DNA of 64,000 nt from Chara braunii. Taxonomy: Eukaryota > Plantae > Charophyceae. Positions 1 through 38,980 of this stretch are shown here, in pieces (the first letter of the stretch is position 1; every line of letters starts with the position of its first letter). The notes under the pieces are model-generated. The model had not been told where the DNA came from, did no database searches, and saw only the letters and a program-made list of their open reading frames with translations. The position numbers and the translations under genes were made by a program. The stretch spans positions 1,338,221-1,402,220 of the forward strand of contig BFEA01000031.1 of the NCBI GenBank assembly GCA_003427395.1, written 5' to 3'.

Positions 1-229
1 TTTCTTCTCTTGTCTGCTCTACCCCTTGAGAGTTATGTACATATAGGGTATAAGCAATAATGGATTGGGTAGTGATCAAGGGCAGTGCAATCCTTCTCAG
101 TCTTCCGATGTAATCTTCAATCAACTCTCTCTCATCATCTCTATTCAATCTTCTATTATTCCCCCTTATACTACCCCGAATCATAAAATATCGAGTCAGG
201 TCTATAATCTCATAATCAAATTGCATCGT

Positions 230-520
230 TTACAGCCCACTTTTGATCCTTTTTGCAAGAGAGACCCGTTTCTTAAAAGTGTGATATGATACTCTCTCAG
301 TAGTTCCCACTTTCACCACCTTTAACAAATANCTTATCTCAGTCTGGTAAGTGATAATTCTCAAAGCAGAATCTCTCATGCGATCTAAGAAAGGCTGTAA
401 AACCTCAAGTTCATCCAGGATAGAAACATTTCTGTAAGAGATCCGAAGAGTCCCCTCTACCTTGACTACTCTACCCTCCAACACAACTCCTAGTGTCAGT
501 TGTTCAGTCAAACTGGACAT
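230..520 (-). CDS. Element A accessory ORF, unknown function
   Basis: 96-aa ORF starting 2 nt after the previous stop; VKVEGTLRIS...PFLDRMRDSAL weakly resembles element C VRIEGGAELS...EFLVEVRRLAL (33426-33611). Confidence 0.4.
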   Translation of the reverse strand: MSSLTEQLTLGVVLEGRVVKVEGTLRISYRNVSILDELEVLQPFLDRMRDSALRIITYQTEIXYLLKVVKVGTTERVSYHTFKKRVSLAKRIKSGL

Positions 521-522
521 TG

Positions 523-1159
523 CTAATCATCATAAGCAACATCTGAAAGGCAGATTTCAGGTTGGATATAATCAGGGATCTCGAATCTGTGTTCAAAGGT
601 ACTCAAAAATAGGGATTTTATTATCACAGTGGAGTCTTTTTCTCTTGCTCTACCAATCTCAGCAATAGCTTCCAACAGAGACATCCAATCTCTCTTGCTT
701 TCAAATCCTTTAGCAATCGAGAATTTAGGAAGTCTCTCAAATTGTCTTACTTCTTTCCCCCAGGTTACTTTTCTCTTTAGCTTTTCAAGCCACTCTTTGG
801 TTCTTATGAGACTAATGTAAGCACCTGTCTGACACTTCAAGTAGTCATCTTCCTTTTCCAAACCTGCTGGTACATAAATCCGTACGTCCAGGCTGCCAAT
901 ACTCATAAATTTGACCACTGGAATGTGAAATATTATGGGCCCTCTCTTACAAGTCTCATATCTCAGGATCACAAAAGGATTATCACACCCTATCACCTCA
1001 TAGAATTTACCCCTCACAGTAGTTATCCTAGCTACTGAGAGTATTCTTCTTGGACACTCTTCACTTTCCATGCAAACGTTATCATGGCATACCAATTGTA
1101 TCTGGGGAATGTGAGTCCCCCAACAGGTGGAGAGGGTATCCAAACAAAAGGTCTGACAT
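523..1159 (-). pseudogene. Element A accessory ORF, family 1 (about 210 aa, frameshift near the start)
   Basis: Motifs LRYE...LDVRIYVP...P...DWMSLL shared with family-1 ORFs; ATG at 1159 follows a ttttttttcctttag acceptor-like tract. Confidence 0.55.
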
Positions 1160-1268
1160 AGGTGCTAAAGGAAAAAAAAATTCCCTCTCCCTCTAATCAT
1201 CTCTTCTCATCATGCACAAGATTCGACGCTCGCTGCCAACTTGAACCTTTTCGGTTTTCGTCAAATCT

Positions 1269-1526
1269 CTACTTCGGCACATAAATCTCAATATCATATT
1301 CATCAAGATCAATAAAATAGCATGTAAGAACATACAGACTGTTATGTTCTTGCCGTGATCTCTTTATGGCTTCATACCTCACGATTTCATAAGGAATTAC
1401 AGCCTTACACGCTATAAAATTAAGAGAATTCAGCAATTTATATGATTCAGCCTTACTCAGCCCTTCATGGCCTCTTATCAGGCTAAGCTTAGATCTCTCC
1501 CTCAAGGGTACATAGCGTCGACTCAT
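1269..1526 (-). pseudogene. Element A accessory ORF, family 1 (truncated)
   Basis: LNSLNFIACKAVIPYEIVRYE...LYVLT...YDIEIYVPK matches the paralog at 1526-2017; start overlaps the upstream stop (TGATG). Confidence 0.6.
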
Positions 1527-2017
1527 CAGGCTCTTTGACCTCTTTTCACTTTCTGGACAAACTTAATCACCGCAAACCAATCATCTTTTGATAAATTTAT
1601 ATCAGGCAAGGGAGGAGCTAAAAATCCCTGGAAGATAGTAAATCGAGTAAATCCAGTGAAGCACTTATTCTTTCTCTCAAACCTCTCTCTCTCTTTCAAT
1701 ACAACTTCTTCAGCAAATTCCCAACATCTCCCATATACTGCATCAACATTTTTTTCCTTTGGGACATAAATTTTTACGTCATACATATTTCAGACCTGTG
1801 AAATAAATGTCAGTACATATAATCGTTCCTGCTCCCATCCGCACTCGACCATCTCATACCTGACAACTTCATATGGAAATGCCTCTCTCTTGCTTAGAGT
1901 ATTCAACGACCTTAGGAGACCTTCAATCTTCTCTTGACTTGGGCCCGAACCTCCGCTAAAATTTGACCTTCTTTGTCTGATTATTTCTGCTGAAATCTCT
2001 TCAGCTCTCATGACCAC
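1526..2017 (-). pseudogene. Element A accessory ORF, family 1 (one in-frame stop near 1790)
   Basis: ORFs 1790-2017 and 1526-1786 are in frame: LNTLSKREAFPYEVVRYE...YDVKIYVPK...PPLPDINLSKDDWFAVI. Confidence 0.6.
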
Positions 2018-2207
2018 CGCTTATTTTCTCTCTTGTTAATATCATGTTGATTATCGGCAGTCAGTTAGTCCCATCACAATAGCTGTCAGGCATAGGAGGG
2101 ATTGGAATAGTTTTGTATGTTACTGGCATTATACCCCATTCCACTTTCTTCTTTTGCTTGATCAAGTCTGTCTTTTCATCATAGATAAATTGGATCACGA
2201 TCTCCCA

Positions 2208-2414
2208 TCACCAATTAAAATTCTCACCATCATTGCTGCCTCCTTCCTTGACATATGGGCGGATATCATAGATATCTCCCTCCAAGAAATGAGTCAGCAC
2301 TACGAAGATGGTTAAGCCACAAGAATGATAGCCCCAACAAGCCTCACACCTGTAAGGAAATATCCCTCTTATAGTAAATTTAGACAATTCTTTCAGAACA
2401 CCGTCGACCAACAT
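2208..2414 (-). pseudogene. Element A accessory ORF, family 1 fragment
   Basis: LSKFTIRGIFPYR...GLTIFVVLTHF..DIYDIRPYVKEG aligns with 3414-3893 (GDLSIFVVQTSF..TIHDPRPYLRKG). Confidence 0.55.
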
Positions 2415-2727
2415 TTGTCTCGATCCGTCTCACTCTCTTCCTTTCAATTCCTTTCAGCATGTTGGGCGATAATTGGGCATACCTGTTGTCGAGCTTGATT
2501 CTCTCCAGTCAATAATTTCAATGACCTTTCCCGATCCAGTGTGATACCTCACACAAGGAAGAAATAAATCACAGTTAGCAGTCGTGATTCTAAAGAAAAC
2601 TGGGACTTAAATGAGAATAATAAAATTAACATGAAACTCACAGAAATGTCAACAGTTCTCACGTCCTAATCAAAGCTAAAAAACGATGATGACCCAGGTT
2701 TGTTCCGGACACGAAAATCTTTTCATG

Positions 2728-2745
2728 TCCCCAGCAACGGTGCCA
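2728..2745 (-). promoter_or_regulatory. Primer-binding site (tRNA-Asp-like), element A
   Basis: TGGCACCGTTGCTGGGGA, 4 nt after the LTR-terminal CA; 2 mismatches to the complement of the plant tRNA-Asp 3' end. Confidence 0.8.
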
Positions 2746-3254
2746 GTTTTGTCGCACTTTTTCCAGTCGAGCCGCTTCGGGCGACCAGAAAGCCAACAGG
2801 CTGTCACACAGGATTTTGTGTGTGCCTGCAATAAATAAAAATAAATTAAATAATGCAAATCTCTTCCTGTTGTGTGCGTCCGGCTTCGAACGAGACCCTT
2901 CAATTGCGGTCTTTGCCGGTCCCTAGTCTTAGGAATCTTTTATTTTGATTCTGAACAGCAGAGAGTTATGCAAATAATGATCATAAAATTATGGGGTGCT
3001 ATGCATGCATCAATTATGTCAGTCAGATTTTGAGAACTGTGACAAAACATGCTCGAAGGCAATCATCAAGCAAAAAAAATGCAGAAAATAAGACTGACTG
3101 ACTCGAGCAAGACAAGGGCAATTGAATGAGGGAATAATGATAACTCATAATAATCTCAGAAAGTACACGTAAACGAGCGTGGTCAGCACCTCTCAAGAGT
3201 CCTCACTCATCCCTTTGGTCAGTCTCTCTCAGTATCTCTTTTCACTGTTCGTCA

Positions 3255-3893
3255 CTAGTGTTGTGACCCACGCCCACAAACAATCTGAGATTGAGGCCTC
3301 GTGACAAAGAGCCACCAGAAGCCAGCAAGCTCTGAGCATGACCAGCCGAGGTACATGACACGAAAGTTAACCATAGAGCAAAACTCCTCCCACAATATAG
3401 GCAGCCCGTCCACTTAGAAGACTCCCCGTCTGAGGTAGGGATACTCGGTGGGCTCGGTCAGTGCCTCAATGTCGATCACTGCTGGAGAGATATACCTCTC
3501 TGCCAAGCCGATCATATCCAACCAACCCGTGCCATCTGTGAGGAGAGAAGGAACAGAAGGCTTGGGATAGTCGGTATAGAGCTTGGGTCCAAAACTGCGA
3601 ATCAGCGTTGTGCCGTTCTCATCGAACTCTCTCTCTCTCTGCTCCAGATACCCGGCTACCGAGATCCACACCGCGTCAAAATGATCGTGTGTCTCCTTGC
3701 CCTTTCTCAGGTAGGGCCTCGGGTCATGAATAGTACAGTCAGCAAAACTGGTCTGGACGACAAAGATTGACAGGTCTCCCTGTCTGAAACCGATGACACT
3801 GACGTAACGATAGCGAAAGGCCTCCTTGCAAGAGAGTCGATTAAGATTAGTTAGCACCGACTCACTCACGGAAAATGAGTGGACCGTACTCAT
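3255..3893 (-). pseudogene. LTR-embedded accessory ORF, family 1 (about 210 aa; premature stop at 3414)
   Basis: Homologous to 20107-20658; the frame continues past the stop (VDGLPILWEEFCSMVNFRVM) as in the other copy; synonymous excess between copies. Confidence 0.75.
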
Positions 3894-4720
3894 GAGGAAA
3901 ATGTCTAGTATCCGCTGAATTGTCTCTGGCTTGCTTGCAGATTTGATAGTTGAACTATTTACTGAACTGATTGTTGAATTGCTTGCTGAATTGCTGATAT
4001 AGTTGCTGACCCAAATGCCGAACTGAAAACTGAACTAAGTACCTTTTCTGATGACTGACCTGAATGTCAATCTGAATTCTGATCTTAATACCTCTCCCCG
4101 ATCGCCGATCTAAACGCTCTTCTGATTGCTTGCTGGTCTGATTGTTAATCTGATTACTGGTTTGGTAGCTGATCTGTTTGTTTGGTCCAGAAACTGATTG
4201 ATTGCTGAAGAAGAAAAAAAAACTAAACCGAATGCTGATTCGAACGCTGTTCCTGGTGCTGCTCTGTCGGTTAAACTGAATGCTAACCTAAATACCTTTT
4301 CTGAGTACCGATCAAGACGCTGATCTGAGTTCTGACCGAATATTGATCCGCTGCTGCACAGTCACTACCAACAGTACTGTACTCTGCACACCAAAGGAAT
4401 AGTCAAGTGTTGATTAATACTGACAGTTCAATTTCCAAGACCGTTCGTTGCTGAGTCAGTTCTCTTGTTGTTTGAGATCGAGTTGCTCTTATCTGGGTCC
4501 CGACTACACGCCGATCAAGTGCTGGTCAGAAAATTCAAACAAATACTGGTATGTTAAGTGTTGAGATAACTGCAGTTTGGCTGTTGCTTAAATGGCGATT
4601 ACTACATTGCCATCCGTGTTTTGTCAATGTAATGGGTGCCCTGTCGTGGTCTGTTTCCGGACACCAACCCGCTCTCTCTAACCTGTCATTGCCTCTCTCT
4701 GGGTTGATAGTTAGGCCCTT

Positions 4721-4996
4721 TTACTGATTTCCAATAATCCTCCTCCTTGCCTCCTCAATGGACCCCACTGATGAGAAGGTACTGTGTAGCTTTTCATTTG
4801 ATCTGTAAATGTAAAAAGTGTATTCAATATGAGTCTGGTTTTTCACTTGCTCTAGAGCTAGTTCCATCATGAGTCTCTTCAGATAACTNAGGTTCTNTGT
4901 GACTCTCTCCTCCCAACCTTCACATTTGTCTTGATGCATTGTACAGGTCACCCTCCGCCTTTCCTCACCTCCCATCTCTCTCTTTATTTTGGCCAC
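4721..4996 (-). CDS. LTR-region accessory ORF, family 2
   Basis: VTCTMHQDKCEGWEERV...IEYTFYI...KLHSTFSSVGSIEEAR; paralogs at 20909-21150 and 44255-44590. Confidence 0.65.
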   Translation of the reverse strand: MAKIKREMGGEERRRVTCTMHQDKCEGWEERVTXNXSYLKRLMMELALEQVKNQTHIEYTFYIYRSNEKLHSTFSSVGSIEEARRRIIGNQ

Positions 4997-6931
4997 CTTT
5001 AATGAATAGGCAGTTAATAATCACTGATCGTGAAAACCTGCGTGATTAGACAGAAAGGGGGCAGGGTAACCGTCCGAGGATTCTACACTAACCTCGTGAA
5101 TTCCACTCTGATTTTACTGAGTCTGCGTCAAGAGCCTAGACCTGCTCGTTGAGTATTGCTTATCTTCAACAATCCAAACAGTGTCCTCTGGTTCTACCTG
5201 AATTCGGTTGACCCTAGGTTGAATTACCCGTGTCAGCGTCGAATTGCCCAGGCCTGTTTTGAATTCACCCGACCCTGGTTTAAGAGGTCCGGTTTACAAT
5301 AACCCGCGTCTAGTTTCTGGTATCCTGTTTTTCATTAGCCACTGGTCGAGTTTCCGTCAGTCTGTAGATCATCAAAACCTTAACGGAAGCTCAGACCCTC
5401 GAATTCTAGCTAAATGCTTAGCCAAACAATGCTCGAATACTAATTCCTAAAGTCACCAAGTGCATTACCTATCATTGGTCCGCCCCCCCGTAACACTTGA
5501 GGCAGCACAGTCACCAACCTCGCTTCCTCTTTTGCCATTAACCAATAAAAGCCCCTTCTGTCCAGTCCGCTGTCTCTACTGATGAGAAGATGCACGAGTC
5601 GCCCACTCTGTTTATAGGAGTAAGCAGAGTATGCTACTGACTTCTAACCTCTCACCATTTTCCAACGCTCCTTTTTATCGGACTCAAGACTTTCAACTTT
5701 TCTTTTTAATTACGGGCCTTGATTTCTGTATCATGCGTAAGGTCTCTAGACACGGTTACTCGAATAAGAACTCGTCTGATGCAAGTTTTAACTCAAAAGC
5801 TGAAATCCCCGGGTTCAATATTCACCTTTAAGAAAACATCCCCACCTGATTCAAAGAAAAGAAAATTTTGACCTTTTCACGTCAATACCACTTTTACGAG
5901 AGGCATGACTTGGCGGGTAAGGGAAGTGTGTTCAGAGTCCTCCCCCTCGTAACCAANGCCAGNCCAGCTATGACGGTGGACTCAAGNTGTTTCTTTAGGA
6001 GCNGGAAACTGGTCCNACCCGAATAGAATTAAGCGTTTTAATCACCATNAAGCAGGAATTTAGCCAAGGNATAAGAANTTTTTCTCAGTATTGCTTTCCT
6101 CTTCCCCATCCATTCAAGGATCAAAACCATAGAATATAGCCAATGAAAATCAACCCAATGTTCCCTCCAAAACATACAAGACTACTCAGTCATTTGCAGG
6201 TTTTTCACTGTCACGCACTTGAGCACACTCAGACCTTCGCCTCCGTTGACAGTAACTCAAACACGCGAACATATGCAACCTTGCAATCATACCATTATGC
6301 GGTCATGCAAAAACAACACGTGGTGTAACCCAGCGAAGTGATTATACAAGGCAACCACTCGACATAGTCACACGACATAACCACATGCGGGGAAGAGGCA
6401 GAGTCTCAGTTGCACTTGTAATCTCCTCCGAGCCCCTTGCCAATATCAGGATTATCTAACTTTTCTCCTTCATTGAACCCTTAGGCTGATAACTCGTACA
6501 TTGGACTTCTCTCCGAGACCAGAACGTTTCGAGGTCATCATTACCAGTCGCGGCTATTTTACCTACTCACCTACTTACACAGCCTACTGACAACTTAACC
6601 TCAATCAGAACGCAACATTTTCGGTTAATATCTGTCAGTCGTTCGGATTTAAACAAAATAAAACAAGACAGAAGGAAGTTGAGATTGATAAAAGAAAGTA
6701 ACTGTTACGCAATTGGTTGGCGTCTTATCTGAGGGTTCAACCGAAGCGGCTGAAAAGAAGCGCCCAATGACCTTCGATAGCAGTGCCCATTACAGATAAA
6801 AAGTCGCACGAAGATGGTATGATAGTTGACCATCAGAGGAAGAACGCGGATAAGTAGCAGGAGTCGCCTTCGAGAAGAAAGTCTCATGTTAGCTTCTCGG
6901 TCCTCAACCTTCCTCCGCACACCCCAGTAAC

Positions 6932-19400: not shown

Positions 19401-20106
19401 CCAACCGACTCGTACCGCATCCAAACCCCAACTTTGCATCTTTGTTCGTCGAAAACGGTCAAGAAACGACCGATCAAACAAGGTTTCACACCCATCTTCT
19501 TCCCTCTCCGCCATCTCGCGCTATCGCACTTTTTTCAGTCGGGCCTACTTCGGGCGACCGGAAAGCCAACAGGCTGTCACGCAGGATTTTTGTAAGTGAT
19601 TGCAATAAATAAAATAAATTAAATAATGCAAATCCCTTCCTGTTGTGTCCGTCCGGCTTCGAGCGAGACCCTTCAATTGCGGTCTTCGTCGGTCCCTGGT
19701 CTTAAGAATCTTTTATTTTGATTCGGAACAGCAGAGAATTATGTAAATAATAATCATAAAATTATGGGGTGCTATTCATGCATCAATTATGTCAATCTGA
19801 TCTTGAGAACTGTGACAAAACATCCACGAAGGCAATCATCGAGCAAGAATAATGCAGAAAATAAGACTGACTGACTCGAGCAAAGACAAGGGCAATTGAA
19901 TGAGCGAAGAATGGAAACTCATAATAATCTCAGAATGTAAACGAGCATGGTCAGCACCCCTCAAGAGTCCTCACTCATCCCTCTGGTCAGTCTCTCTCAA
20001 TTTCTTTTCACTGATCTTCCCTGGTGCTGAGACCCACGCTCGCGTACAGTCCGAGACTGAGGCTTCATGACAAAATGCCACCTGTAGCCAGCAACTCTGA
20101 GCACGA

Positions 20107-20658
20107 CTATCCGAGGCACATGACACGGTAGTTAACCATGGAGCAAAACTCCTCCCATAAGGTAGGCAGTCCGTCCATCGAAAAAACTCCTCGTCTGAGG
20201 TAAGGATACTCGGTGGGCTCAGTCAATGCCTCGACGTCGATCACCGCCGAAGAGATGTATCTCTTTGCCAAGCTAACCACATCCAGCCAACTCGTGCCAT
20301 AAGTGAGAAGAGAAGGGACCGGAGGCCTAGGATAGTCAGTATAAAGCGCCGGCCCGAAGCTGCGGATCAACGTAGTACTACTCTCATCGAGCTCCCTCTC
20401 TCTCTGCTCAAGATAGTTGGTGGTTGAGATCTAGACCGGATCGAAAAGTTCATGAGCCTCCTTGCCCTTCTTCAGATAAGGCCTCAGATCGTGAATAGTG
20501 TCATCAGCAAAACTGGTCTGGACAACGAAGATTGACAGATCTCCCTGTCTGAAACCAACGACACTAACATATCGATAATGAAATGCCTCTTTGCATGAGA
20601 TCCGATTGAGGTTGGCCAACACTGACTCACTGACCGGCGTAGGCTGAACTGTGCTCAT
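20107..20658 (-). pseudogene. LTR-embedded accessory ORF, family 1 (in-frame stops at 20431 and 20107)
   Basis: Close homolog of 3255-3893 (LNRISCKEAFHYRYVSVVGFRQGDLSIFVVQTSFAD; RSFGPALYTDYPRPPVPSLL). Confidence 0.75.
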
Positions 20659-20908
20659 AAGTACTCTTGCTAGTACAAACTTGACTAGATAGCCCCGGAG
20701 AACTGGTTACCAAAACTGATGGCAGAAAGCTGATTGTTGAGAACTGATTGTTGATTGAATGATTGTTGATGACGGATTACTGAAAAACTGTTTGCTGAAA
20801 ATCGAATGTTATAACTGTTGTTTTGAAGTCTACCCCAACTCTCTACAGGCTGCATGCGCTAAACACACACTCGTCTCTTTTTATCATGAAGTAGATGATT
20901 AACTTATC

Positions 20909-21150
20909 TCACTGAGAATCCCGGACAACCTTTCTTGCTTCCTCTACAGTGCCCACTAAGGAAATAGTAGCGCACAACTTGCCCTTTCTGTCATGTAAAT
21001 TATAGGTGTACTCAATCCAGGTGTGGTCCTTTACCAGCGTCAAAGCATGCTCCATCATTATGACTGTCTGCTGATTGTACTCTTCCACTGCACTATCCCT
21101 CCAATCCTCTGCCACGCTCTGACGCAGTGAACATGCCACCCTTATAACGC
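20909..21150 (-). pseudogene. Accessory ORF, family 2, interrupted by element C (5' part lies at 43329 to about 43365)
   Basis: Removing C rejoins RMKGGDV-IRVACSLRQ, matching REMGGEERRRVTCTMHQ of 4721-4996. Confidence 0.65.
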
Positions 21151-24100
21151 TGTCCGGGTAGTCTCTCTCCCCCCACCTCTGTTTCTTAGGTCACCTGACC
21201 AGCCACTCCCTTCCGGTCCCCCCCCCTCCCCTCGGCGGGAGGCTCAGTTAGTCGCAGGCGCGGTCCCGCCCGGTAGCCGGCGAAGTACAGATTAACACCC
21301 CCTCTTCCCCACGGGTGGGCGACCCCTAGACACTCCTCCTTCCCCCACACTCTGACCAGGAGCCCTCCCTTCTTTTTGGAATCTGGATCAGACCGCTCGA
21401 GGACGAGTCGATGGCTGCCACCACTGGCTCGCGAGGCCAGGCCCACACGACCACCACTCGGCTCAGATCGAAGGCTCGAAATGGACCAAGAAAACGTGAC
21501 CTGGTCCAGCCGATAAAGGACTTTTTAATAGAGCTAGACCTCGTAAAAGTGACGGGAAATGTCGGTACACCGCCTACAGGCGAACAGAGCTGACGAACAC
21601 CGGGGCAAAAAAAAAAAAAAAAAACAGGCTTTCTTGAAACATACAGATCACACCAGATCAGCCAGCGGCCGGCTCGAGGCCAGATATTTTTTGACGAGCC
21701 GTTGAAAACAAAAATTTAGGAACAACACTTAAATGGGAGCAGGGCGGGTAACCGCCTGTGCCGAAAATGAGAAAGAAAAGAGGAAAGGAAAAGAAAAGAG
21801 AACAGGCTTTCTTGAAAGATACAGATCACACTAGTTCAGCCCGCGGCCGACTCGAGCCCAGGCGTCTTTGACGGACTGTTTGCGAACAAGGAACTCTCGA
21901 AGAAACCCAGAAAACAGAAATTTTTGGAACTGCATCCAAACTGGGCGGGGTGTATAATCTTCGGGGGCCGAAAATAACTTTCTTGGGACATACAGCTATA
22001 CCGTCAGCAAGAAACTCAGAGTCGGTAGTGTCTCCTGACCATTTCTTGCAGCGAACAGAAGTCACTTCCCTCCCCTCCGAAACGTAGCTCAGTACGTCGG
22101 GGGTTCGAAGCTCGTGCACACTAGCTGCAGCAGCTCCCTCCCCTCGCGTCAGCCGCGTCGCACTGGCTTTCTCGGCTCGCCCCTTCCGACACAGGAGATT
22201 CTCTACTTCTTCCNNNNNNNNNNNNNNNNNNNNNNNNNNNNNNNNNNNNNNNNNNNNNNNNNNNNNNNNNNNNNNNNNNNNNNNNNNNNNNNNNNNNNNN
22301 NNNNNNNNNNNNNNNNNNNNNNNNNNNNNNNNNNNNNNNNNNNNNNNNNNNNNNNNNNNNNNNNNNNNNNNNNNNNNNNNNNNNNNNNNNNNNNNNNNNN
22401 NNNNNNNNNNNNNNNNNNNNNNNNNNNNNNNNNNNNNNNNNNNNNNNNNNNNNNNNNNNNNNNNNNNNNNNNNNNNNNNNNNNNNNNNNNNNNNNNNNNN
22501 NNNNNNNNNNNNNNNNNNNNNNNNNNNNNNNNNNNNNNNNNNNNNNNNNNNNNNNNNNNNNNNNNNNNNNNNNNNNNNNNNNNNNNNNNNNNNNNNNNNN
22601 NNNNNNNNNNNNNNNNNNNNNNNNNNNNNNNNNNNNNNNNNNNNNNNNNNNNNNNNNNNNNNNNNNNNNNNNNNNNNNNNNNNNNNNNNNNNNNNNNNNN
22701 NNNNNNNNNNNNNNNNNNNNNNNNNNNNNNNNNNNNNNNNNNNNNNNNNNNNNNNNNNNNNNNNNNNNNNNNNNNNNNNNNNNNNNNNNNNNNNNNNNNN
22801 NNNNNNNNNNNNNNNNNNNNNNNNNNNNNNNNNNNNNNNNNNNNNNNNNNNNNNNNNNNNNNNNNNNNNNNNNNNNNNNNNNNNNNNNNNNNNNNNNNNN
22901 NNNNNNNNNNNNNNNNNNNNNNNNNNNNNNNNNNNNNNNNNNNNNNNNNNNNNNNNNNNNNNNNNNNNNNNNNNNNNNNNNNNNNNNNNNNNNNNNNNNN
23001 NNNNNNNNNNNNNNNNNNNNNNNNNNNNNNNNNNNNNNNNNNNNNNNNNNNNNNNNNNNNNNNNNNNNNNNNNNNNNNNNNNNNNNNNNNNNNNNNNNNN
23101 NNNNNNNNNNNNNNNNNNNNNNNNNNNNNNNNNNNNNNNNNNNNNNNNNNNNNNNNNNNNNNNNNNNNNNNNNNNNNNNNNNNNNNNNNNNNNNNNNNNN
23201 NNNNNNNNNNNNNGTGACTGCTAGCACCCGTCTACCCTTCCCCTCAAGCCTTCTTTATCCCTCTCTTCTCTCTCACGCGCACCAGTCTCTCCTCCTGGCG
23301 CAAGCACCGTCGGCCGACGAGCTCGTGCACTCTCTCCCGTGCGCCAGCGAATGTTATCCTCGAGCACGCACCACGCGTACTCGCTAGCTTCCAACCTCCG
23401 TGCGCTTTTCTTTTTGAGGCTCCTCTCTCTCTCTTTTATACCCTCAGTCCCTCGTTACTTCCTCCTTGTATACGGCATTCGCATCTCATTCTGCTAACGT
23501 TTTCGAAATTTTCCCTTCTTCCTGCCGTTCGCCTTAAATTTTTCAAAATTTTTTCTTACTTCCCGCTCACCCTTCCTCCCCATCTGTTTGATTCAGCGTT
23601 TCCCCATCCTCGACCAATTACGGCTCACCTTTTCCTCAAGGTAGGATCGATATTACTTTGTTCGGTCGATAACCTCCCGCCGGCAGCACTTGTCCCTTTC
23701 CAATCTTTGTTACTTGCTGCACAAGTCCGTTGAGCTTCCTTGTCCGTTCGTTTTCTTCCTCCAGGATCTGGCGGGAGCTCTGATAGACGGCGCACCCCAG
23801 TACCAGCTCTGGTGCAGTTCGTTGCCCGACCGTTCGTACCCTTCGGCGCTGGTGATGTTTTCCGTACCTTCGAGAGAGTCGACTCTATTCCTCTTCTTCC
23901 CTCCCCCCCTCTCTCTGCCACATAGTTTCTTTCTCCCGACATTCTCTACCATTTCCCGCTTACTTTCGTCGATCCAGACTTCTTTTCCTCCTCCAATCGC
24001 AACTCGCCCCTCACCCTCGACAGGATCTTGATCAACCCCACTCTTCTTCGGCTGACAGTCGCGCCATCCTCGAAATTTTCCACTACTTCCCGCTCCTTCT

Positions 24101-25221
24101 CTCCTCCCCTCTTCATTCCTTGTCGCTCTAGATTTCTTCATCGCCCTCCAATCGCAGGTCATCCCTCACTCTCGGCGGGATCCTCATCGCGCCCGCTCTT
24201 CTGAGGGCTGCCCAATGCCCTCACCTGGTCTGGCGAAGCCGCCGGCACTCGCCGATTCCTTCTCCCTTCGATTGTCCGGCTTGCCGCGCGTATCTGATGC
24301 GACTCTTGGTTTAGATGCATTCTGGCTTTAGCCAGCGGATTCGTAATCAGCCCGTTCATATTCCCTTCCGTCTGGAGCAGCGGTCTCGTTCCCCATGCTT
24401 TCAAGAGTCCGTTATCAAGAACTCGCGACGCTCTCATTCCCTCCCTCCCCACATAACTCACTTTCCCTTCTTGTACTGCCAATTGCGCGCGTAGCCTCCT
24501 CCAGCCGGACCCCGGATTCGCCTGGTGGGTCCCTCAGGCGGTAAAAGCTACTAGCTGGCTCTTCTCACCATTCTCCTGCCTCAGGGACGCACACCAGATC
24601 TCACAAGAATCAAATCCCCCCTTTTCCAACCACCCGTATACGGTCCACTCCTCGGCCCTTGCATGAGCTTTGGATCCGTTGGTGGCAGCCCTCGGTCACA
24701 GTCCCCTACCTCGCTTGGAGTGACTCCAGGCCGTCGACACCAAACCCCTTCGACTCTCTCCGTCTTACCGGCCCAAGCCCGCAAGGTTGTTTATCTCGGG
24801 ACTGTGCCAAGAGAGCCTGCTTGTTATCCCCCCTGTAGTTATTCCCCTGACCCTCCTCGTGCCGAAGTCCCTTCCGATCGCAATGCTTCAGGTGCTGCTG
24901 ATAGCCCATGCTCGGGCCCTCGATAGGTCCCTTATTTTCGGCCCTAACTCGACAGTCCGCCGTTCGTTCCCGTTTTCCTGGTCCTGGCATCGAAAAACTC
25001 CGATTTTCGTGATCCGCGCGAACCCGCTCGTGACCAAAATTTGGACCGCCACTTCAGCCAATAGAAGGGTAAGTGCGTAGACCCGGACACCCGAGGACAT
25101 CCACAAGTGCTACATTCACATGCACTCATATGTCAAAACCAAGCAAAACTGTAAAAACAAAGAAGAAAAAAGTTCTTTATTTCAAAGAAAAATACTTCGG
25201 CTGTTAGACAGCCGCCCGACA
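21151..25221 (-). repeat. 3' LTR of element C
   Basis: TG...CA termini; near-identical to 38986-43328; N gap 22214-23213; TATA-like GGGTATAAAAG on minus near 23435. Confidence 0.95.
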
Positions 25222-25240
25222 ACCAGCCCACACCCCAATT
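25222..25240 (-). promoter_or_regulatory. Polypurine-tract-like sequence, element C
   Basis: Minus strand aattGGGGTGTGGGCTGGT directly before the 3' LTR. Confidence 0.55.
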
Positions 25241-25535
25241 CTCGCCGTCCCCGGCGAGCATTTCCCTCTATTTTTCACCTCTCCTCATTTCAGTTCATCC
25301 CGTATCCCCTGGTTCCCCCGGATGCCCTTTACCTTTTCGATGCCTGTTTTTCCTAACTATGCTCGTCTTCCCTAACCACGGTACAAAATTCCTTTCGGCG
25401 TCACAACATATCGCCCTTTTCCGGCTCACGTTTTCCTAACTATGGTACATTCTCCCTTTCGGCCCCGTGACACACGTCCCTTCCTAACTATGGTACAATC
25501 ACCCTTCCCAGGACTAAGACTCTTGGGGCCTCATC

Positions 25536-27269
25536 CTATGACTGTCTCTGTCTCCTTCTCCTCTTCTCGAGCCTCTCTCTCTTCCGTTTCCTCTCTCTTC
25601 TCTCTCGTTTGATTTTCAAGGCTCTCCTTGAGGCACTCCTCTCTCTCAATCTGCGCTTCCCTAACCGATCGGCGGCCTCTTCATCCTCTCTAGGTTTTTT
25701 CTTCTTCCCAGGGGTCTTTGGTAGGGAAGGTTTCCGAACCTTATACCCCTTCCTAGGTGGGCGAGACGAGGCCCCTTGTTTGGAGGTCTCCCCTTTTTCA
25801 TGCGTGATGGTCAACTCCGCGCCGAGCGCTTCTTTCCCTTTTCGTTTTGGCCCCTCCCCAAGGGTCCCTCTCGATCGGAAGATCTTGAGACGAACCCCTG
25901 CGATAGGGTCCCGCAGCCTACTCCCATCTAACTCCGCGAGCATATAGGCCCCCCCGTCCAATCTTTTTAGGACCTTGTATGGTCCCATCCATCGGCTTGC
26001 CAATTTTCGGCTCCAGGTCTTTTCTAGTGACGAATCGTACATCAGCACTAGGTCGTTCACCCCTATTGGAGCTCTTCGGACCCGTAGATTTTTGTCCCAT
26101 CTATCTTTCCCTTTCACCCTCTCCCTCTCGACGTTCTCACTGGCCGTGGCTACCCCGGCATCCAAGTTCTCGGCTATTTGCTATATTCGTGCTTCCAAAA
26201 ACTCACCCCTACACATGTTGGTCTTCCATGAGACACTTGTCCAAGTGTCAACGTGGAACTCAATGGATAGGGGACAATGCCTGCCGAACCAAAGGGTGTA
26301 AGGAGGGTATCCAATACTTGATCTGACCGTGATGTTGTCCGCCCAAACTGCGTACCGTAAATACTTGGGCCATTGTTCCGTGCGACCCCTACACCATTTC
26401 GCTAGGGCGTCCACAAGTGTTTGGTGTCCCCTCTCTACCAGCCCATTGCTTTCGGGGTGATAAGCGGTCGTGTAGGCTGCCCCGATCCCTGCTTTTTCTA
26501 ACAACCCCTTTACCTTTTGGTTCGAGAACTCATCTCCCCTATCCATGACTTTTCTCCCGACACACCCATACCGCGCGATATACTCTAGGAGAAAATCACT
26601 TACCTCCTCCGCCGTCTTTTTCTTAATGGCCTTGGCTTCTACGAATCTGGTGAGGTCATCCCGGGCGTTGATTATATATCGGAGACCGCCGACCCCTTTT
26701 GGCATGGTTACCAAGTTTATATGGACCTTCTCGCCCGGAACCGTGGGAAGCGACGAAACTAAGGGTTCTTTGTATCGAACCGTCACCCTCGTCTGGCAAG
26801 CTTCACAGGTAGAACAGTACTTTTCCACTTCGGTGTATTGCCCGTCCCACCAATATAGCCTACGGACCTTATCGAAAGTACCCTTCACCCCTCTATGACC
26901 CCCAACGACCCCGTCGTGCAACTCCTCTATGACCGCCCTCCTTTCCTCCGGATCGCACAGCACCCTCATGGGTATTGTGAATTTGGTGGGTCTCTTGAAG
27001 AGGTGGCCTCCCCGCAGGCAATACCCCAGCGCCTCTTGCTGGATCTTTTCAGTCCCTGTTTTCCTACCGGCCAGGTACAGTCCTATGTCTCGGTACTTTC
27101 CGTCGTAGAGATTCGCGAAAAAGGTCCTTGGGCCCCCTTCTTCCCCTCGGCTGCTCCCAGCTATTTGCGCCCTATTTGCGGCGACTTTCATTATCGCCTT
27201 TCCGGCCATTGCCTCTTCTTCCTCCTTAAGCCTAGGTAGGTCCTCCTCTCGAATGGGAAGACGGGACAA
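25536..27269 (-). pseudogene. pol: Integrase (HHCC zinc finger, DDE core, GPY/F motif, basic tail); stop at 26181
   Basis: ELHDGVVGGHRG...CSTCEAC; VHINLV (first catalytic D appears as N); VMDRGDEF; HPESNGLVER; RWMGPYKV; no chromodomain seen. Confidence 0.92.
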
Positions 27270-27296
27270 TCCATCGGCGACCTGTTTTTTTCTCCC

Positions 27297-28900
27297 CTAT
27301 ATCCTCTCGACCCTGTAGTCATAAAGCCTGATATGGATCCTCCAGCGTGCGATGGTTGGATCCGTCAATGAGAAATCCTTTTGGAGGACCGCGGCCACTG
27401 CCGTCGGGTCCACCCTTAGGAGAAAACGTCGTCCGTACAGGTAGTGACGGAAGGCTTTCAGGGAATGCAATACCCCCAACACCTCTTTCTTGAATTGACT
27501 ATAATTTCTCTCTGCGGGGTTCAAGGTACGACTCTCGAATCGCAAAGGCCTCTCTCTTCCTTCCCCATCCTTTTGTGACAGGAGACCCCCTACCGAGTAA
27601 GGTCCAGCGTCCGTGGATACTATAAACGGACGACTCTCTTCGTCTTCAAAAAACGGGACCCCTAGGACTTCTCCACCTTCGCGGAATTCCCCCTTCAAGG
27701 CTTCCATGGCCGTTGTTTGCTTTTCTCCCCAAACCCATCCTTCTGATTTCCTGAGGAGTCTTCTAAGGGGTTCCGCCTTCTCTCCATAGGCCTTTATGAA
27801 GATTCGCCAGCAACCCACAACCCCTAGAAATTGCCAGACCTCCGTTATGGATTTGAGCGGCGATGGCCAAGTCATCAACTTTACTAGCTTCTCGGGATCG
27901 GGCCTCCGCCCCTCTTTATCGCAAATGAACCCTAATATCTTGATGGAGGATATGCCCCAGCGACTCCTAGTCCCGCTTACTGTGAGGTTCGCATCGTCTA
28001 GTTTCTCAAGGACGTCTCTGACATCTTTCATATGGTCGGCCACAAACTTTCTAACCCCCGGGAAAACCTCTGTCTCATCCTGCTCGACCGGTCCTTTTAT
28101 CGGGAAATCATCCAGGAAGACCTCCACCTTCTCGGGTATGAATTCCTTGAGGACCGCGATCATGGCCCTTTGGAACACAGCTACCCCATTCGTCCAACCC
28201 ATCGGTACCACCATCATTTGAACTAGCCCTAAAGGTGTATGCATGGCGGTCATGTGCCTATCCCTGTAATCTAAGGGAATCTCGTCGTACCCTGAGAAGA
28301 GATCGCAAATAGAGTAAATCGAGCGACCAGCTGACCCTTCCGCTAGCAAGTCGGCCTCAGGTATAGATCCCACGTCTCTTATGGTGACTGCATTGGTTCT
28401 CTGGAGGTTCTGGATCCATCTTAGTTTGTTGCTACCTCCCTTCCTTAGAAAGAACCACTTATTGGAGTAGGCACTCTCGCAAGGTTCCGCGACGAATGTC
28501 CTGATATTTTCCTTGATGAAGGTCACTATCTCTTCTTTCTCCTTTTGAGCATACTACCATTGAGGTCTTTCCTTCCAAGGGACATGGGGGACCGTGTGGA
28601 TTCGGGTAGGATCAACATACCTCGGGTCGATTCTCCCTCTCTCCGAGTCGTCAAAGACAATGGCCTTATCGCAGCCCCTTAAGGTCATTGTTATGAACTT
28701 TTTTTCTTTCTCCGTGAGATTCTCATCTCCTATATCAATTTTGGCCAGTCTATCGGCCGTTATCCTTTGCCCCTCCGTCTCTTTCCTCTTCCTGATGATA
28801 TCGGCTATCTTCTCTTCCGATATCGTAACTTCCCCCGTTCTATCCCGGCTGACCGCGGCGGGTTTCACTTTCTCCGCCATGGTTTTGTGTTTCTTATCTC
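27297..28900 (-). pseudogene. pol: Reverse transcriptase plus RNase H; stops at 28554 and 27297
   Basis: SICDLFSGY, PMGWTN, VFLDDFPI, KILGF; RNase H IVSTDAG...RPLRFESRTL..AERNYS. Confidence 0.95.
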
Positions 28901-31900
28901 CGCCGGCTAGGGGGATCCCTCCAAAAAAAGACAAACTAACGCACCCACCGAACTCCTCTTCCTCGTCTTCCTTCTCGTACCCCATGCCGTTAATTACCAC
29001 CCTGTCCCCCACGTCTTCGATCTCCAATTGGTCCCCCTTGGGTCCTCTATCCGTCAAGGGCACTTCCTCTAGACAGACTCGACAAACCCTCGACTGGGCC
29101 CCCTTGCGCCTAGTAAGGCTGGTCCGGTTACGTTAATCTTGCGCGTCCACCGTCTTCAGGACCACTCCGATTCCATCAGGACTTTGGATCGAGAGAGTTT
29201 GACTTTCATCCGGCAAATCAACTGTGGTCGCATGTACCGCGCTTAGCCAAGTCTTCCCGAGGATTAATTCGGAGGAACATTCTTTCACCGTAAAGATCGG
29301 TACCGTGGCCTCCACACCAGCTACCTCAATTACGGGGCTATGACACACCCCTTCCGCCGGTTGCAGCTTGTTATCTACCATCACCATCGACATTGACACC
29401 TCTTGGTCTATCTCCAGGCCTAACTCTCGCGCGATGGAGTCCTTACATACCGTAGACTCGGACCCGTTGTCCACTAAAGCCCTCATCTTTTTCCCACTTA
29501 CCACCGCCTGGAGCTGGCCACTCCCCAGCACGTAGAGCTTCTTGGCCTCTTTCCTCGAGAAGAAATTGGCCGGCAGCTCCTCCATGGTAATGCGGGTGGC
29601 CCGCACTTCTTCCTTGGCGGGATCTTCTACTGGTACCATTGGTGCTACCGCTAGCGGGACCCTCACCTTCCTTGTGATGATTAGGAGCTCCTCTCTGACA
29701 CTTTTGCTTGCGGCCAGATACTCTAAAAGGGTGCACTGCATGGGCTGCATCAGCGTTTGCCTAAGGGGTGCTACCGTGTCTATCTCGTCCAGGGTGCACT
29801 TCATTTCGAACTTTTTGGGGCCCCTTTTCTTAGGTGATTTCGGCGAAGTGGGTTCCTCTTTCTTTTCCTCCCCTGCTTTCGCATCGGTCATTGGTTGGTC
29901 ATTATCTCCGCTTTTCACCTCCGTACTTTCCGTCACGCTTACTTGGTTCTCAAATGTCTCAGCCCCGACCTGCGGCCTCACCCTTAGGTAGGGTCTCTCC
30001 TCCTCGGCCTGTGTATCTATGAACTTGATGTTGGATACTTGGGGTTCCCTAATGGACAACCCTCCCGGTGACTCCATCATTTGGATGTGAGCCGCGCTCG
30101 AGGAGCCCCCGACCTCCGGCTTCTTTCCTAGCCTAGCCTCTTGAAGGGCCACCCTCTTATCCACGTTCACCCTCATCGATGGATAGAAGGAGACCGCCTC
30201 TCCGCTGTCTCCCCACACAACCCACTTGTTTTCATTCAACTTGACCACTCCCAATCTCAACGCCTCCGTGAGATAAGGGCAGTCCCTTTTGATGTGGTTT
30301 TCTTCGTTGCAGTAGACACACCCAGCCCGAGCTTGGGGATTGTTGGGACGCGGACCCCCTTGTGCCGTTGCTGCTATCGGCGCAGGCGCAGCCGGTAGCT
30401 GCGGTGCCAGAGGTGGTGGCGCTCTAAACTCCGGACGAGGCCCAGGGGCCCTGGCTTGAGGGGCGTCTCCCCACCTTCCATCCCTAGCATCCTTCCAATG
30501 GGAATTTCCCCAATCGGAACCACGATTCCCCCCTACTTCCTTGTCGTTCCTCCAACCTCCCTGGCCAATTGATTCGTTCCTCCATCCGGTAGGCCAGTCT
30601 CCCCACCGGGGGCCAGGCGGAGCCGGTGGTGGTCTATCGCTCCCCTTTGGACCATCGTTCCGCGTCCCTCGCATGTTGCGGAGAGCCATGTCCAAGGTCT
30701 CTTTCATGTATTCTCTTACGTCCACCCCCCCCCCTGTGAAAACCACTTCGGCTACTTTCTCGAAATTTGCAGAATCCCTCGGGGCCTTTTCAAGGACCTC
30801 CTTTCTCTTTTCCTCAGGCAGGTGTAGCATGAACATTATGCACCTGTCTACCTCGGACAACATGCCCCTATCCACTAGGGTTTGGGATAAGCGTTTGAAC
30901 CTTCGGGTGAAGGCTACCAAGCTTTCCCGCTCCCCCCTTGTAATCCGTCGCAAGCCCTCTACGGTTGGGATTAAGTCATCACAGGCAAAAGTCTGCAATA
31001 GGCTCGCCCTGAAGGTCCTCCATCGACCGTCCGAGGGGTAGATAGCCCGGATTGCGGTGTCTAATTCGGGGTCCGAGTGCTGGATAAAATAGTCGATCCA
31101 CTCCCTTTCGGAGAATCTCTTGCGGTACGCGTAACTTTCTCATTTCTCCACAAACCCAGTTACATCTCGCCCATCGAAAAAAAGCGCCTCTAGACCCAGG
31201 TTGACGTCATAATAGGGCACCCGTCGGTCGTCATATCGGCGAAAATAGAGACCTTCCATAGGTCCATCGGTTGCCGGATCGTACGGCCTATACCACGAGG
31301 GATCGGTCTCCTCTACCCGGCCTCGAGGTCTTGATGATTCCCAGGGGTCTTCCCCATAGCGACTCTGCTCATCTAGCCAATCTGCTTCCCACCGAGCGAG
31401 GTCCCTCTAAAACTCCTCCGGGGCTCCATCCCTTGACTCCTGCCTATTATCTCGCCAGTTGCCCAAGCCGCATCTGCCTCTCTCACGGCCCATCTACATG
31501 ACCTACTTCCAGCCTCCATTGGCCTCTTTTCCCTAAGACCCCTTCTACTTGGCCCCCCTTCCTCTTCTCTCTAGAGTGGCTTGTACCCCCCCCTATCTCT
31601 TGGGAGTTCCAGGGTTTCTCCCATTCTTGCGTCCGGCAAATCCCCCCATCGAGATTCTATAGGAAGGCCCCTCGAGCCCTCGGTTGCCCCCTCTCTTACT
31701 GACATTCTCATTTCCACACCAGATCTCGGGCCTACCAAGCCCTGCCTTTCACTGGTGACCCCCTCCGGGATCCTCTCGACCCATCTCCTCCCCTCTCTCA
31801 AGTCCCTCCTGTCTTGACACTCCTCTTCTTCTCCCCTAAGTGGCCGATACCCTTGTCTATCCCTAGGGAAATCCCTTGTCCCCTCTAGCCTTGCTTCCGC

Positions 31901-32215
31901 ATCAATTAGGTCCGCCCACCGGGACTCCACCGGAACGCCTCTCGTGGCTTCGGCTACCCCCTCGTTCACCATCACCCGCGGCCCCACATCCCTGTGCACT
32001 CTCACCTCCGCGTCAGCCCTTTGCCCCTCTGTGGCTTGTCTCTCTCCCAGAGCCATTTCTGGGACCCCTTCGGCCCTATCAAGCGTCTCCTTCCCCTCAG
32101 TCATTTCTTCCACTACCTTGCTTAGACTGGCCCCCAACTCAAGGCTCTTCACTATCCCCCTTCGTTCAGTGGTTTCCGGCAGACCAGGGAGACCAGCCCC
32201 CGCTTCACTCTCCAT
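28901..32215 (-). pseudogene. gag: gag-protease of element C (capsid-like region, CCHC zinc knuckle, aspartic protease) with several stops or frameshifts; true start uncertain
   Basis: LFFDGRDVTGF capsid motif near 31190; CVYCNEENHIKRDC; ALVDNGSE; ELILGKTWL; the TAA at 29133 is in frame with the downstream ORF. Confidence 0.88.
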
Positions 32216-32469
32216 GCACCCTTACCTGCTACTTCTAGTCGCCTCCCTCACTACCGTACGTGTCACTACCCCGCTCTCCCTCTTCACCACTGTCTCTGTT
32301 ACTTCCCGAGCGCTTCTCCTCCTCTGTTCCCCCCTCCTCCTCACTAGAACCCTCGTTCGCACCGTCTCTCTCCGACTCCTCACTGGTTACTGTCCGCCAA
32401 GCATCTCTCAGTTTCTTCTCCTCACTGGCGGCCAATGCAAGATTAGCGACCTCTAGGTCCGAGATGCCT

Positions 32470-33126
32470 CTAACCCCATTCTTGCGCACATCTCTTAATC
32501 AAATCCCTGTCCACATCACCAGGCTGCCCGGAGAATGGAGGCTTGATGAACTCCCCAACGCGTGCCCACCACTCGAAATCGGTGTCCTCTCTCGACTCCC
32601 AGCACTGGGTGAATAACTCGTGTCCCCCTCCCTCGCCCAGTGGGAATTTTTCTATCACTTGACTCCTCAATCGGACTCTCCTCGCGGTCTCGTCGTCCTT
32701 ATAGAGTAGTCGATAGGCCCAGGTAGGGATATTCCAAGTCCTTCCGTGGCCTGCTCTCAGAACCTCTTCCCTCCCTCGGTATTCTACCTTATTAAATACG
32801 GGTCCCCCGGTACCGACCCTTCTCAACCTCTATACTCGTTCTAGGGCTTTTTCGGCGATGCCTAGAGGGTCTTTCTCTTCCGCTAATTTAGTTGCGAAGA
32901 CCAGCTGGGCGTCAGGGGACAAAACGATTTCCGCTTTTCTAGTGCAGCCGTTCTCGTCGGAGGTCACTGAGAATCTGACCACCGTCTCCTGCTCGTAAAT
33001 CTCAAAGAACTCGGTAGTCACATCGCCTTCTCCTCTAACCCTAGGAAGAGTCACTCCATATTTCCCTGCCCACGTAAAAACCCTCTCTATGGTGTCGTAA
33101 GGGTCCCCCCTTTCGTATTTAATCAT
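32470..33126 (-). pseudogene. Element C accessory ORF (about 215 aa, one in-frame TAG at 32830), unknown
   Basis: ORFs 32830-33186 and 32470-32826 are contiguous in frame; ATG at 33126. Confidence 0.5.
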
Positions 33127-33134
33127 AGGGGTTC

Positions 33135-33804
33135 TCACCTCACACCTGCTAACCGCTCGGCGGCTTCGACCAAGGAGTCTTCGCACCTAGCTCGACCCGT
33201 CCCCCTATCCCCCCTTAGGGTTTGGCGCAAAGCCTCTTCATATTCGCTCGCCCTATCCCAAAACCGAGTCTCCACAAGGTGTGTCCTAGACGTCAGTGAC
33301 GTTCCTAGACATCTTGAGTCCTCCTCGAACTTTCTCTCTACTTCCAGCAAAGACTCTCTCCAAGTCCTCGAGAATCTCACGCCACTTGCGTCTCTAATAT
33401 GGACCGAAAAGATAGCTAGTGTGGTTCAGTTCCTTCTCTTCCACAAAGCCAGCCTCCGGACTTCCACTAGAAACTCCGTCTCGGCGCGGACTATCCGGTC
33501 CTCCCCCAATTCCGGGCTAAGCTCGGCACCCCCCTCGATCCTAACCTCGCTCCCGTCCTCGTAGGTCTCTAGTTCCCAGCGAATCCTGTTTGAAACGAAA
33601 GAGGCTCTCATCCCCTTACGCCAAGAGAAGGTCTATCGTGACCTCGTCGAGGATCGCGATCGTGGCTGCCTCTAGTAGCTTGATTCTTGCCAAGGACCCT
33701 GGCCTAGCCCTCCTTTCTTCTTCCCAGCACAGAGCAAGGATCCGCTGAACTTCGTCCCTCACTCTATTCAACCCCACGAGCCCCTCAAGGTCCGGCTCGG
33801 TCAT
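33135..33804 (-). pseudogene. Element C accessory ORF(s), fragmented
   Basis: Three short consecutive sense ORFs; the first ATG overlaps the end of 33785-34537. Confidence 0.4.
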
Positions 33805-34537: not shown

Positions 34538-35277
34538 TGGCGCTTAAAACCCCTCCGGTTTGCCACCTGCTCCTCTTCGAAGAAGCGAGCCTACGGGACG
34601 TCCGCGACGAGGGTTCGGAGTCGCTCAAACTCCCTCAATCTCCCAAATATGGTGGATAGTTCACCCCTTGGGGGAACTCCCGCATCCACGCACCGAGTAT
34701 AAAGCCAAAACAAACCCCTATCCCGCACCCCGGATTCTCGAGCAGCCTTAAGCACCGCTACTATTTTCTCTTCCGGGTCCCTTAAGAACGAACTGGCCAC
34801 GAACTGGGGCAAGTTAGGGTGAAGGACCCCGAAAGCGCGAGGGACCTCTCCGGGCTCGGCGAAGGAAACTAGGGACCACAACTCGAAAGTCCCCTCCTCG
34901 TAATCTGTTAACACCAGGTTGTTTTCCAACAGCCTGGCGGACTCTCGGTACTCAAAGTGCGTAAGCCGCCCGGTCACCGAACCCCTCCAGACCTCGGTCC
35001 ACCTCTCCTCGTCGAAAAAAATGGTGGCTCGGATTTCTAGGAAGCGACCGATGTCGGGTGGGCCTCCTCTCTCCACACCCTCTTTCCGAGTGAGCCTTCG
35101 CGCTCGAACCCACACGTAGGCCCCTTCTCTGATTAATCCCCCTTTCTCAACACTCATCCAATAGGGAGTCACCTGAGGGTCTCCTGGGATCAAGACCTTC
35201 TCGGGATCACCGGCCTCTATCGATTCTACCACCCCTTCTTCACTGAGGACGAACTTCACCATCGGCTTTCGTTGCAC
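34534..35277 (-). pseudogene. Element C accessory ORF, family 3 (probable premature TAG at 34591)
   Basis: YVWVRA...IRATIFFDEERW...GEVPR...LPQF...LFWLYTRCVD; read-through ends in an ATGA overlap with the next ORF. Confidence 0.65.
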
Positions 35278-35926: not shown

Positions 35927-35930
35927 TCAT

Positions 35931-38961: not shown

Positions 38962-38980
38962 ATCCCCGGCAATGGCGCCA
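38962..38980 (-). promoter_or_regulatory. Primer-binding site (tRNA-Asp), element C
   Basis: TGGCGCCATTGCCGGGGAT, 5 nt after the 5' LTR. Confidence 0.9.

Follow-up and report, generated by a model that had tools for sequence, protein, structure and literature searches.

Coding sequence that lies in or overlaps an LTR and is duplicated by reverse transcription is known from sag of MMTV and nef of HIV. Both are genes of vertebrate retroviruses, located in U3, and function in host immunity. In plant Ty3/gypsy elements, extra ORFs occur up- or downstream of gag-pol and are placed in the internal region (PMC7264820). The REXdb survey counted only ORFs of at least 250 codons and gives LTRs of up to ~5 kb for plant non-chromoviruses (PMC6317226). 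Retrosat2, RIRE3 and RIRE8 combine an ORF0 upstream of gag-pol with LTRs of over 3 kb and many solo LTRs (PMC3485330). The moss element Phygy is associated with an NCGN target-site motif (PMC6317226), and crapaud LTRs have a conserved 3' half and a variable 5' half (PMC10787394). In a mainly open-access literature, neither the layout with an LTR-resident gene nor the gene family treated here was found described for plant, algal or Chara elements.

Here, a stretch of 64,000 nucleotides from contig BFEA01000031.1 of Chara braunii (the window) was analyzed, which consists of repeat-rich eukaryotic DNA. It contains two copies of a retrotransposon, element A, that carry a small gene, ORF1. ORF1 belongs to an accessory gene family whose arrays lie to either side of the LTR/PBS boundary. 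The family is real and has been under selection, and residence of ORF1 in the LTR is probable.

Results

Element A and its neighbours

The LTR of element A ends in CA and is followed by a primer binding site (PBS), the arrangement by which an LTR retrotransposon is recognized (Table 1). Copy 1 is the LTR region from 2750 upward, with the PBS, and copy 2 extends from 19522 onward without one. The two copies are 84% identical (2752-3869 versus 19524-20634). In the tail (2752-3254) 41 of 494 sites differ (8%). An AATAAA motif, 195 nt from the LTR end, is conserved in both copies (2944 and 19717), and the tail between this motif and ORF1 is T-rich. When folded together with the PBS, the final 240 nt outperform 199 of 200 shuffles (z -2.6). 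An AT-rich tract (2820-2855, minus), about 70 nt inward from the LTR end, resembles a 3' splice site and ends in CAG, with CAA in copy 2. A splice-acceptor model built on a TAG 11 nt before the ATG (both ORF1 copies and 44590) was inconsistent across the other ORFs and was rejected.

Table 1. Features of the window discussed in the text.
Feature	Position	Strand	Remarks
Two tandem ORFs (520-230, 229-<1)	2..520	minus	mutual paralogs (z 11), weakly like family 2
Family-1 paralog 4	523..1071	minus	open 182-aa frame, most diverged
Family-1 paralog 3	1062..1466	minus	stops; tblastn E 3e-7; shuffle z 14
Family-1 paralog 2	1529..1945	minus	one stop; shuffle z 11 to ORF1; 50% identity to P0001
Family-1 paralog 1	2022..2417	minus	stops; tblastn E 8e-12, 27% identity; shuffle z 27
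Primer binding site, element A	2728..2745	minus	4 nt past LTR end
Non-coding 3' LTR tail, element A	2750..3254	minus	CA end at 2750; conserved
ORF1 (family 1)	3893 to ~3339	minus	~184 codons; omega 0.10 vs copy 2
TCAG-rich spacer	3894..4720	minus	weak 12/24-nt tandem repeats near 3931-3995
Family-2 ORF, copy 1	4721..4975	minus	84 aa
Candidate TATA box	5609..5616	minus	motif scan; upstream of family 2; 2.87 kb from LTR end
Purine tract then TG, candidate PPT/LTR start	5933..5948	minus	weak: several other purine tracts found
Copy 2 proximal	19522..21150	minus	LTR end without PBS, ORF1 20107-20658, C-terminal part of family-2 ORF
Element B, full-length Ty3/gypsy	21151..43328	minus	inserted in family-2 ORF of copy 2
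Two remote family-1 paralogs	36667..37388	minus	element B leader between PBS and gag
Copy 2 distal	43333..46254	minus	interrupted family-2 start, TCAG-rich spacer, second family-2 ORF, upstream non-coding
Second family-2 ORF of copy 2	44255-44590	minus	distal part

Copy 2 is interrupted by element B, which is 22 kb long and has ~6 kb of leader ORFs. The frame of the interrupted family-2 ORF resumes across the insertion site, and the target duplication is 4 bp with one mismatch. Across the insertion, copy 2 reads family-2b, spacer, family-2a, spacer, ORF1 and tail, and measures at least 4.55 kb if it reaches 46254. Element B encodes protease, RT, RNase H and integrase in this order. Its LTRs are 4073 bp (with an N gap) and 4343 bp long and 3.5-4.4% diverged, thus long LTRs are normal here. 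Its PBS is near-identical to that of element A and starts at 38980, 5 nt past the LTR end at 38986. The gag-pol part of element A falls outside the window; the gene order is seen in this neighbour, which has a near-identical PBS and family-1 paralogs, and element A is likely of the Ty3/gypsy type. ORFs in the element B LTRs showed no clear codon bias, at a divergence of ~4% that gives low power and with one of four pairs misregistered. Within the leader of element B (32830-37388, minus), three to four mutually paralogous ORFs lie at 33785-36509 and another at 32830-33126; no Pfam match was obtained for the four leader ORFs scanned. Beyond copy 2, a high-depth repeat (46255-46960) starts near a hairpin with 12-bp arms (46268-46298).

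A third element has its LTR end and PBS near 58260 (58260-60179, plus), followed by ORFs at 58483, 59348 and 59796 and a gag-like frame near 60900. Leader ORF arrays therefore occur in at least three families of the window. A further PBS at 14179, related to the LTR end of the third element, precedes a 2-kb leader and a gag-like ORF (11105-14182, minus); neither pol nor a partner LTR was found for this element. A tRNA-like box A/box B pair, recognized by eye, lies inside an inverted repeat at 47040-47220 and is possibly a SINE; ARAGORN predicted no tRNA. Tandem arrays are present at 56562-57361 (~164 bp, 5 copies) and 15925-16472 (~122/244 bp).

ORF1 evolved under purifying selection and decayed in the window

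A preliminary description of this DNA had placed a family-1 ORF 0.5-1.15 kb inside the LTR end next to the PBS and had noted its recurrence in the copy without PBS. Indeed, ORF1 lies 0.5-1.14 kb inside the LTR as measured from the end at 2750, and it is present again at 20107-20658. The earlier count of 16 synonymous-only versus 4 amino-acid-changing differences over 44 codons was reproduced exactly. Among the first 187 codons, of which 184 were compared (three stop-containing codon pairs were excluded), 58 synonymous-only and 36 changing codon differences separate copy 1 from copy 2. Using a purpose-written Nei-Gojobori script with JC correction in place of codeml, we obtained dN 0.109 and dS 1.05, and hence a low ratio (omega 0.10, bootstrap 95% CI 0.06-0.16, 184 codons). 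The two remaining sense frames served as a control and gave omega values of 1.5 and 1.8. Antisense frames gave 1.0 and 2.0, and 0.21 where third positions coincide. The selected part of the frame stops near codon 184; the final 23 codons before 3255 have no third-position bias (2/7/6). Divergence of the LTR tail is ~12-fold below the dS of ORF1 (~1), so that either strong constraint or homogenisation of the 3' part of the LTR is needed.

Both ORF1 copies are interrupted by premature stops, at codon 160 in copy 1 (3414-3416) and at codon 76 in copy 2. The gene model P0002, from another locus, shares 80% and 86% identity with the window copies, and its reading frame is open over both break points. 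The purifying selection proposed earlier thus holds for the ancestral replicating lineages and not for these insertions, which are both pseudogenes. Selection apparently worked in the replicating ancestors, and the copies decayed afterwards. The suggestion that functional accessory genes are spread over the genome by solo LTRs found no support, as copy 2 lacks a matching target-site duplication that would prove its solo state. Exact-match candidates for such a duplication (46902 and 47937) are located in or past the unrelated high-depth repeat, and none was found at 46254-46260. Two oligo-dT RNA runs yielded 31 and 1202 reads over 1-4888 with about equal strands. None of these reads was at least 99% alike, and no start or end pile-ups or RNA joints were seen among the rows listed; the reads may stem from DNA carry-over or other family members and speak neither for nor against expression.

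Two other origins of the synonymous excess and of ORF1 itself were considered. Transitions account for 94 of the 123 differences between the ORF1 copies, as would be the case if methylation-driven mutation of a non-coding repeat had mimicked selection. However, third positions remain in excess when CpG sites are removed (52/87, p = 4e-7) and among transversions alone (20/29, p = 9e-5), which excludes a methylation artefact. Conserved motifs over 13 family sequences and a confident fold prediction also speak against this explanation, which is refuted and to which we give practically no weight. A captured host gene, or a domesticated gene under host-level selection, might be suspected from ORF1 fragments in three annotated Chara braunii gene models. 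In all three models, however, the fragment is fused to RT- or gag-like sequence from other elements. Together with the two broken window copies and the lack of any cellular homolog among 1.84 billion representatives, this makes a host gene highly improbable.

Paralog arrays, family 2 and the spacers

Judged by sequence comparison, ORF1 is a member of an array, with four paralogs just past the PBS and two more in the leader of element B. The most diverged of the four was detected from P0004, P0006, P0009 and P0011 (E 3e-11 to 7e-17), while its pairwise comparison to ORF1 was not significant (z 1.3). The two paralogs in element B were detected from P0006 (E 2e-5 and 5e-5; pairwise z to ORF1 3.7 and 8.6). 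A six-frame search of the window with the family-1 profile returned eight members, all of them already in the profile, and no further ones. In a tree of 13 rows, ORF1 joined the first post-PBS paralog and P0005 (support 94/92, not firm).

Family-2 ORFs had been described as lying farther in, and they were found there (4724-4975, 20912-21148 and 44258-44590). One is present in copy 1 and two in copy 2, so gene number varies between subfamilies. Their pairwise amino acid identity is 28-48%, with pS 0.71-0.80 versus pN 0.33-0.46. The ORF of copy 1 is 48% identical to 2b and 39% to 2a of copy 2 (shuffle z 30 and 24). The similarity of the two tandem ORFs at the window start to family 2 (profile E 0.005; hhalign E 8e-4, probability 24%) is a lead only. 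Upstream of ORF1, the motif TCAG, which was picked by eye, occurs 27 times in the long spacer of copy 1 (10.7 expected) and 23 times in that of copy 2 (7.4 expected), counts that 0 of 200 shuffles reached in either case. These two long spacers are not alignable. The short spacer of copy 2 has no TCAG excess (5 versus 3.8).

Homologs and predicted fold of family 1

Named homologs of ORF1 were limited to Chara braunii gene models. Among the 1.84 billion representatives, seven matches reached E<1e-10. Intact family-1 proteins of 121-161 aa are encoded on contigs of 0.5-1.5 kb (P0001, P0004, P0005, P0006, P0009 and P0011). These six proteins are 18-25% identical to ORF1 and may extend family 1 beyond Chara braunii. 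An Enterococcus repeat protein (P0008, E 8e-5) was dropped as spurious. A single-sequence word search with ORF1 found no homolog. ORF1, family 2 and the 13 aligned members had no Pfam match above cut-off, and none at E 0.1 to the plant mobile domain, Athila ORF-1 or Transposase_28. PDB sequences gave no match at E 1.

The model of ORF1 is a compact alpha/beta domain (residues 1-135, pLDDT 82.9, pTM 0.75). In the family-1 alignment D57 and Y61 are invariant, and P110, P112 and W124 are near-invariant. Foldseek retrieved nothing at E 0.001 from PDB or BFVD, the latter searched with a weaker first model only. The best VIA-align match was the Crl-like regulator 3rpj (Z 5.8, rmsd 3.0, 81 aligned), followed by GNAT and gelsolin folds (Z at most 5.4), all within the common range. 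The ESM Atlas yielded no named family at 0.9 or above. A dsRBD-like reading (helix, three strands, helix) was abandoned, with no such entry among the 50 matches listed. Family 1 is new at the sequence level; the missing fold match is not proof of a new fold.

Position of ORF1 relative to the LTR

LTR boundaries were searched with public DNA contigs aligned to 1-4888, where variable flanks mark element ends. Two runs, X1 and X4, come from one sample, possibly the source of the assembly. At 2749/2750, 76+87 contigs of X1 and 73+91 of X4 (163 and 164 in total) have variable flanks, with a flank agreement of 0.37-0.38, and the flanks differ between X1 and X4. No comparable pile was seen in 2750-4888 among the 20 of 2163 loose-end rows listed. 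Among these rows, 3214, 3231, 3354, 3558 and 3739 comprise 9-43 contigs with short loose parts and an agreement of 0.58-0.99. The loose-end consensus at 3214 is similar in three runs and marks a subfamily branch, not an LTR start. As 2749/2750 is the one site with a pile of variable flanks among the rows listed, ORF1 is probably located in the LTR. Neither 3.9-11 kb nor 43.3-47.5 kb has gag or pol similarity, and the lack of pol upstream in either copy also favours this position.

Read depth in X1 was 16846-24731 in the LTR tail, 13571 and 9295 in the C-terminal half of ORF1, 1839 and 2941 in its N-terminal half, and about 100 (67-171) above 3913. Internal bins had a median of 4749 and a maximum of 10461. 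A gene in the LTR should be no less than twice as abundant as internal sequence. Depth, which is not copy number, is ambiguous in this respect, being 2-2.9 times the internal median in the C-terminal half of ORF1 and only 0.9-1.3 times the internal maximum. In copy 2, contigs over the distal part (43335-47655) had low depth up to ~46230 and then entered the unrelated high-depth repeat. One sibling contig ceases aligning at 46249, and no LTR start was revealed in this interval among the 12 of 824 loose-end rows listed. The candidate LTR start at 5948-5933 in copy 1 would give a 3.2-kb LTR holding both ORF1 and family 2. The window and the public contigs yielded neither a full-length element A nor an LTR start nor a paired target duplication. 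Metagenome and viral contig scans, by protein and by conserved LTR motif, gave no match.

P0002 starts with a homolog (65% identical) of the window ORF 8716-8198, joined to ORF1. This fusion may be due to chance in a TE-dense genome, or the upstream ORF may come from the 3' interior of element A, in which case a shared LTR in tandem would follow at copy 1. The same ORF is the first of two (187 and 133 aa) in an N-rich segment at 6932-8716 (minus).

Shorter LTRs were weighed against this placement. The LTR could measure only ~0.45-0.5 kb. In that case ORF1 and family 2 would be ordinary sense ORFs located after pol and before the 3' LTR, and copy 1 would be a tandem of two elements with one common LTR. 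Sense-oriented aORFs on the 3' side are common (PMC7264820), and identity between the copies is 91-93% below 3200 but 68-85% in ORF1. A purine-rich stretch followed by TG lies near 3190-3250. Also compatible with a short LTR are the depth of ORF1, not clearly above the best internal bins, and the fusion in P0002 at another locus. Yet the expected start pile is absent among the rows listed despite nearly as high a depth there, and pol is missing from the 2.9 kb (copy 2) or 6 kb (copy 1) that precede family 2. An uncommon tandem exactly at this locus would also be required. We give this reading, a short LTR together with a tandem, a small chance. An LTR start between ORF1 and family 2, leaving family 2 in the 3' interior, is still less likely. 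It would be hard to see at the depth of ~100 above 3913, and an 8-nt sequence that matches the LTR end perfectly in inverted orientation exists once in copy 2 (43697-43704). An 8-mer match, however, has a chance of ~5% over 3 kb, no purine tract precedes it and copy 1 has no counterpart. Of the earlier claim that protein-coding genes lie inside the LTR, the part on ORF1 is retained as probable, with ORF1 residing within a long LTR. For family 2, the same position is less sure and only somewhat favoured.

Discussion

The preferred explanation, which we consider reasonably likely as a whole, is that of a selected accessory gene, likely LTR-resident and copied into both LTRs. ORF1 would be an accessory gene of an algal Ty3/gypsy-type element, kept by purifying selection in replicating lineages. 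Situated inside a multi-kb LTR and upstream of the predicted poly(A) signal, it would be copied into both LTRs by reverse transcription. As the last gene on the genomic RNA it would lie in R or U3. The candidate TATA box, canonical in sequence, lies 2.87 kb away from the LTR end, similar to the 2.29 kb of element B, which favours a long R. We put the chance that ORF1 lies in a long R downstream of the candidate TATA at 5616 at about even, and a position in U3 appears less probable. The borders of R and U3 require RNA data (PMC3601003). ORF1 probably originated when the first post-PBS gene was duplicated to the other side of the LTR tail, as the tree, itself not firm, suggests. Template switching probably keeps the tail homogeneous, and signals for priming and for the 3' end would preserve it as the parts upstream diversify. 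Inserted copies would then decay.

Concerning function, the small alpha/beta proteins could act against host silencing, with the motif-rich spacers of their own element as the recognised sequence, as in VANC proteins. Gene duplication and divergence beside motif-rich spacers recall VANC, and counter-silencing is taken as the likeliest single role. The TCAG enrichment of the two long spacers fits this role, whereas the missing domain and fold matches and the short spacer of copy 2 without TCAG excess speak against it. The assignment is tentative, and an RNA- or particle-associated helper is the main functional alternative. Rather improbable is the far-reaching version, in which arrays of two small-protein families straddle the LTR/PBS boundary and every solo LTR is a promoter-gene-poly(A) cassette, spreading a counter-silencing factor of new fold genome-wide.

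Plant retrotransposon accessory ORFs have been described as internal and mostly single. If ORF1 is in the LTR, each transposition would duplicate a gene under selection and solo LTRs would retain it, a layout like that of retroviruses. ORFs as short as these are below the usual 250-codon cut-off of surveys, and family-1 ORFs contaminate Chara gene models. The 12-fold gap between dS and tail divergence warns against dating by LTR similarity between subfamilies. The family-1 protein is small, soluble-looking and well modelled, and hence directly testable.

Element A differs from the retroviruses with sag and nef in having paralogs beyond the PBS and in a placement of ORF1 that may be U3 or R. 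As a conserved extra ORF in many copies of a family, ORF1 corresponds to a plant aORF/eORF. Like those of Athila, Ogre, Retand, Grande and RIRE2, it is element-borne, lineage-restricted and without cellular homolog, and accompanies very long LTRs (PMC7264820, PMC6317226). In contrast to the plant ORFs as described there, the proteins here have 80-185 aa and are encoded in tandem arrays, with one member likely in the LTR (PMC6317226, PMC7264820). ORF0 of Retrosat2, RIRE3 and RIRE8 is likewise a sense ORF accompanying long LTRs, with Ka well below Ks (PMC3485330). Compared by layout, not sequence, Retrosat2 ORF0 is the nearest case, but it is a single internal gene (PMC3485330). VANC of VANDAL elements shares the combination of diversifying accessory proteins with variable motif-rich non-coding DNA (PMC5735166). 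VANDALs, however, are DNA transposons, and the likeness is an analogy only, the family-1 protein having no Pfam or PDB match. The NCGN motif of Phygy fits the target duplication of element B (one mismatch) and the left flank of copy 2 (PMC6317226). Unlike Phygy, which is short, without extra ORFs and with a polyprotein spanning nearly the whole interior, element B has a long leader with ORF arrays (PMC6317226). Finally, element A resembles crapaud in its pattern of a conserved 3' part of the LTR beside a diversified upstream part (PMC10787394).
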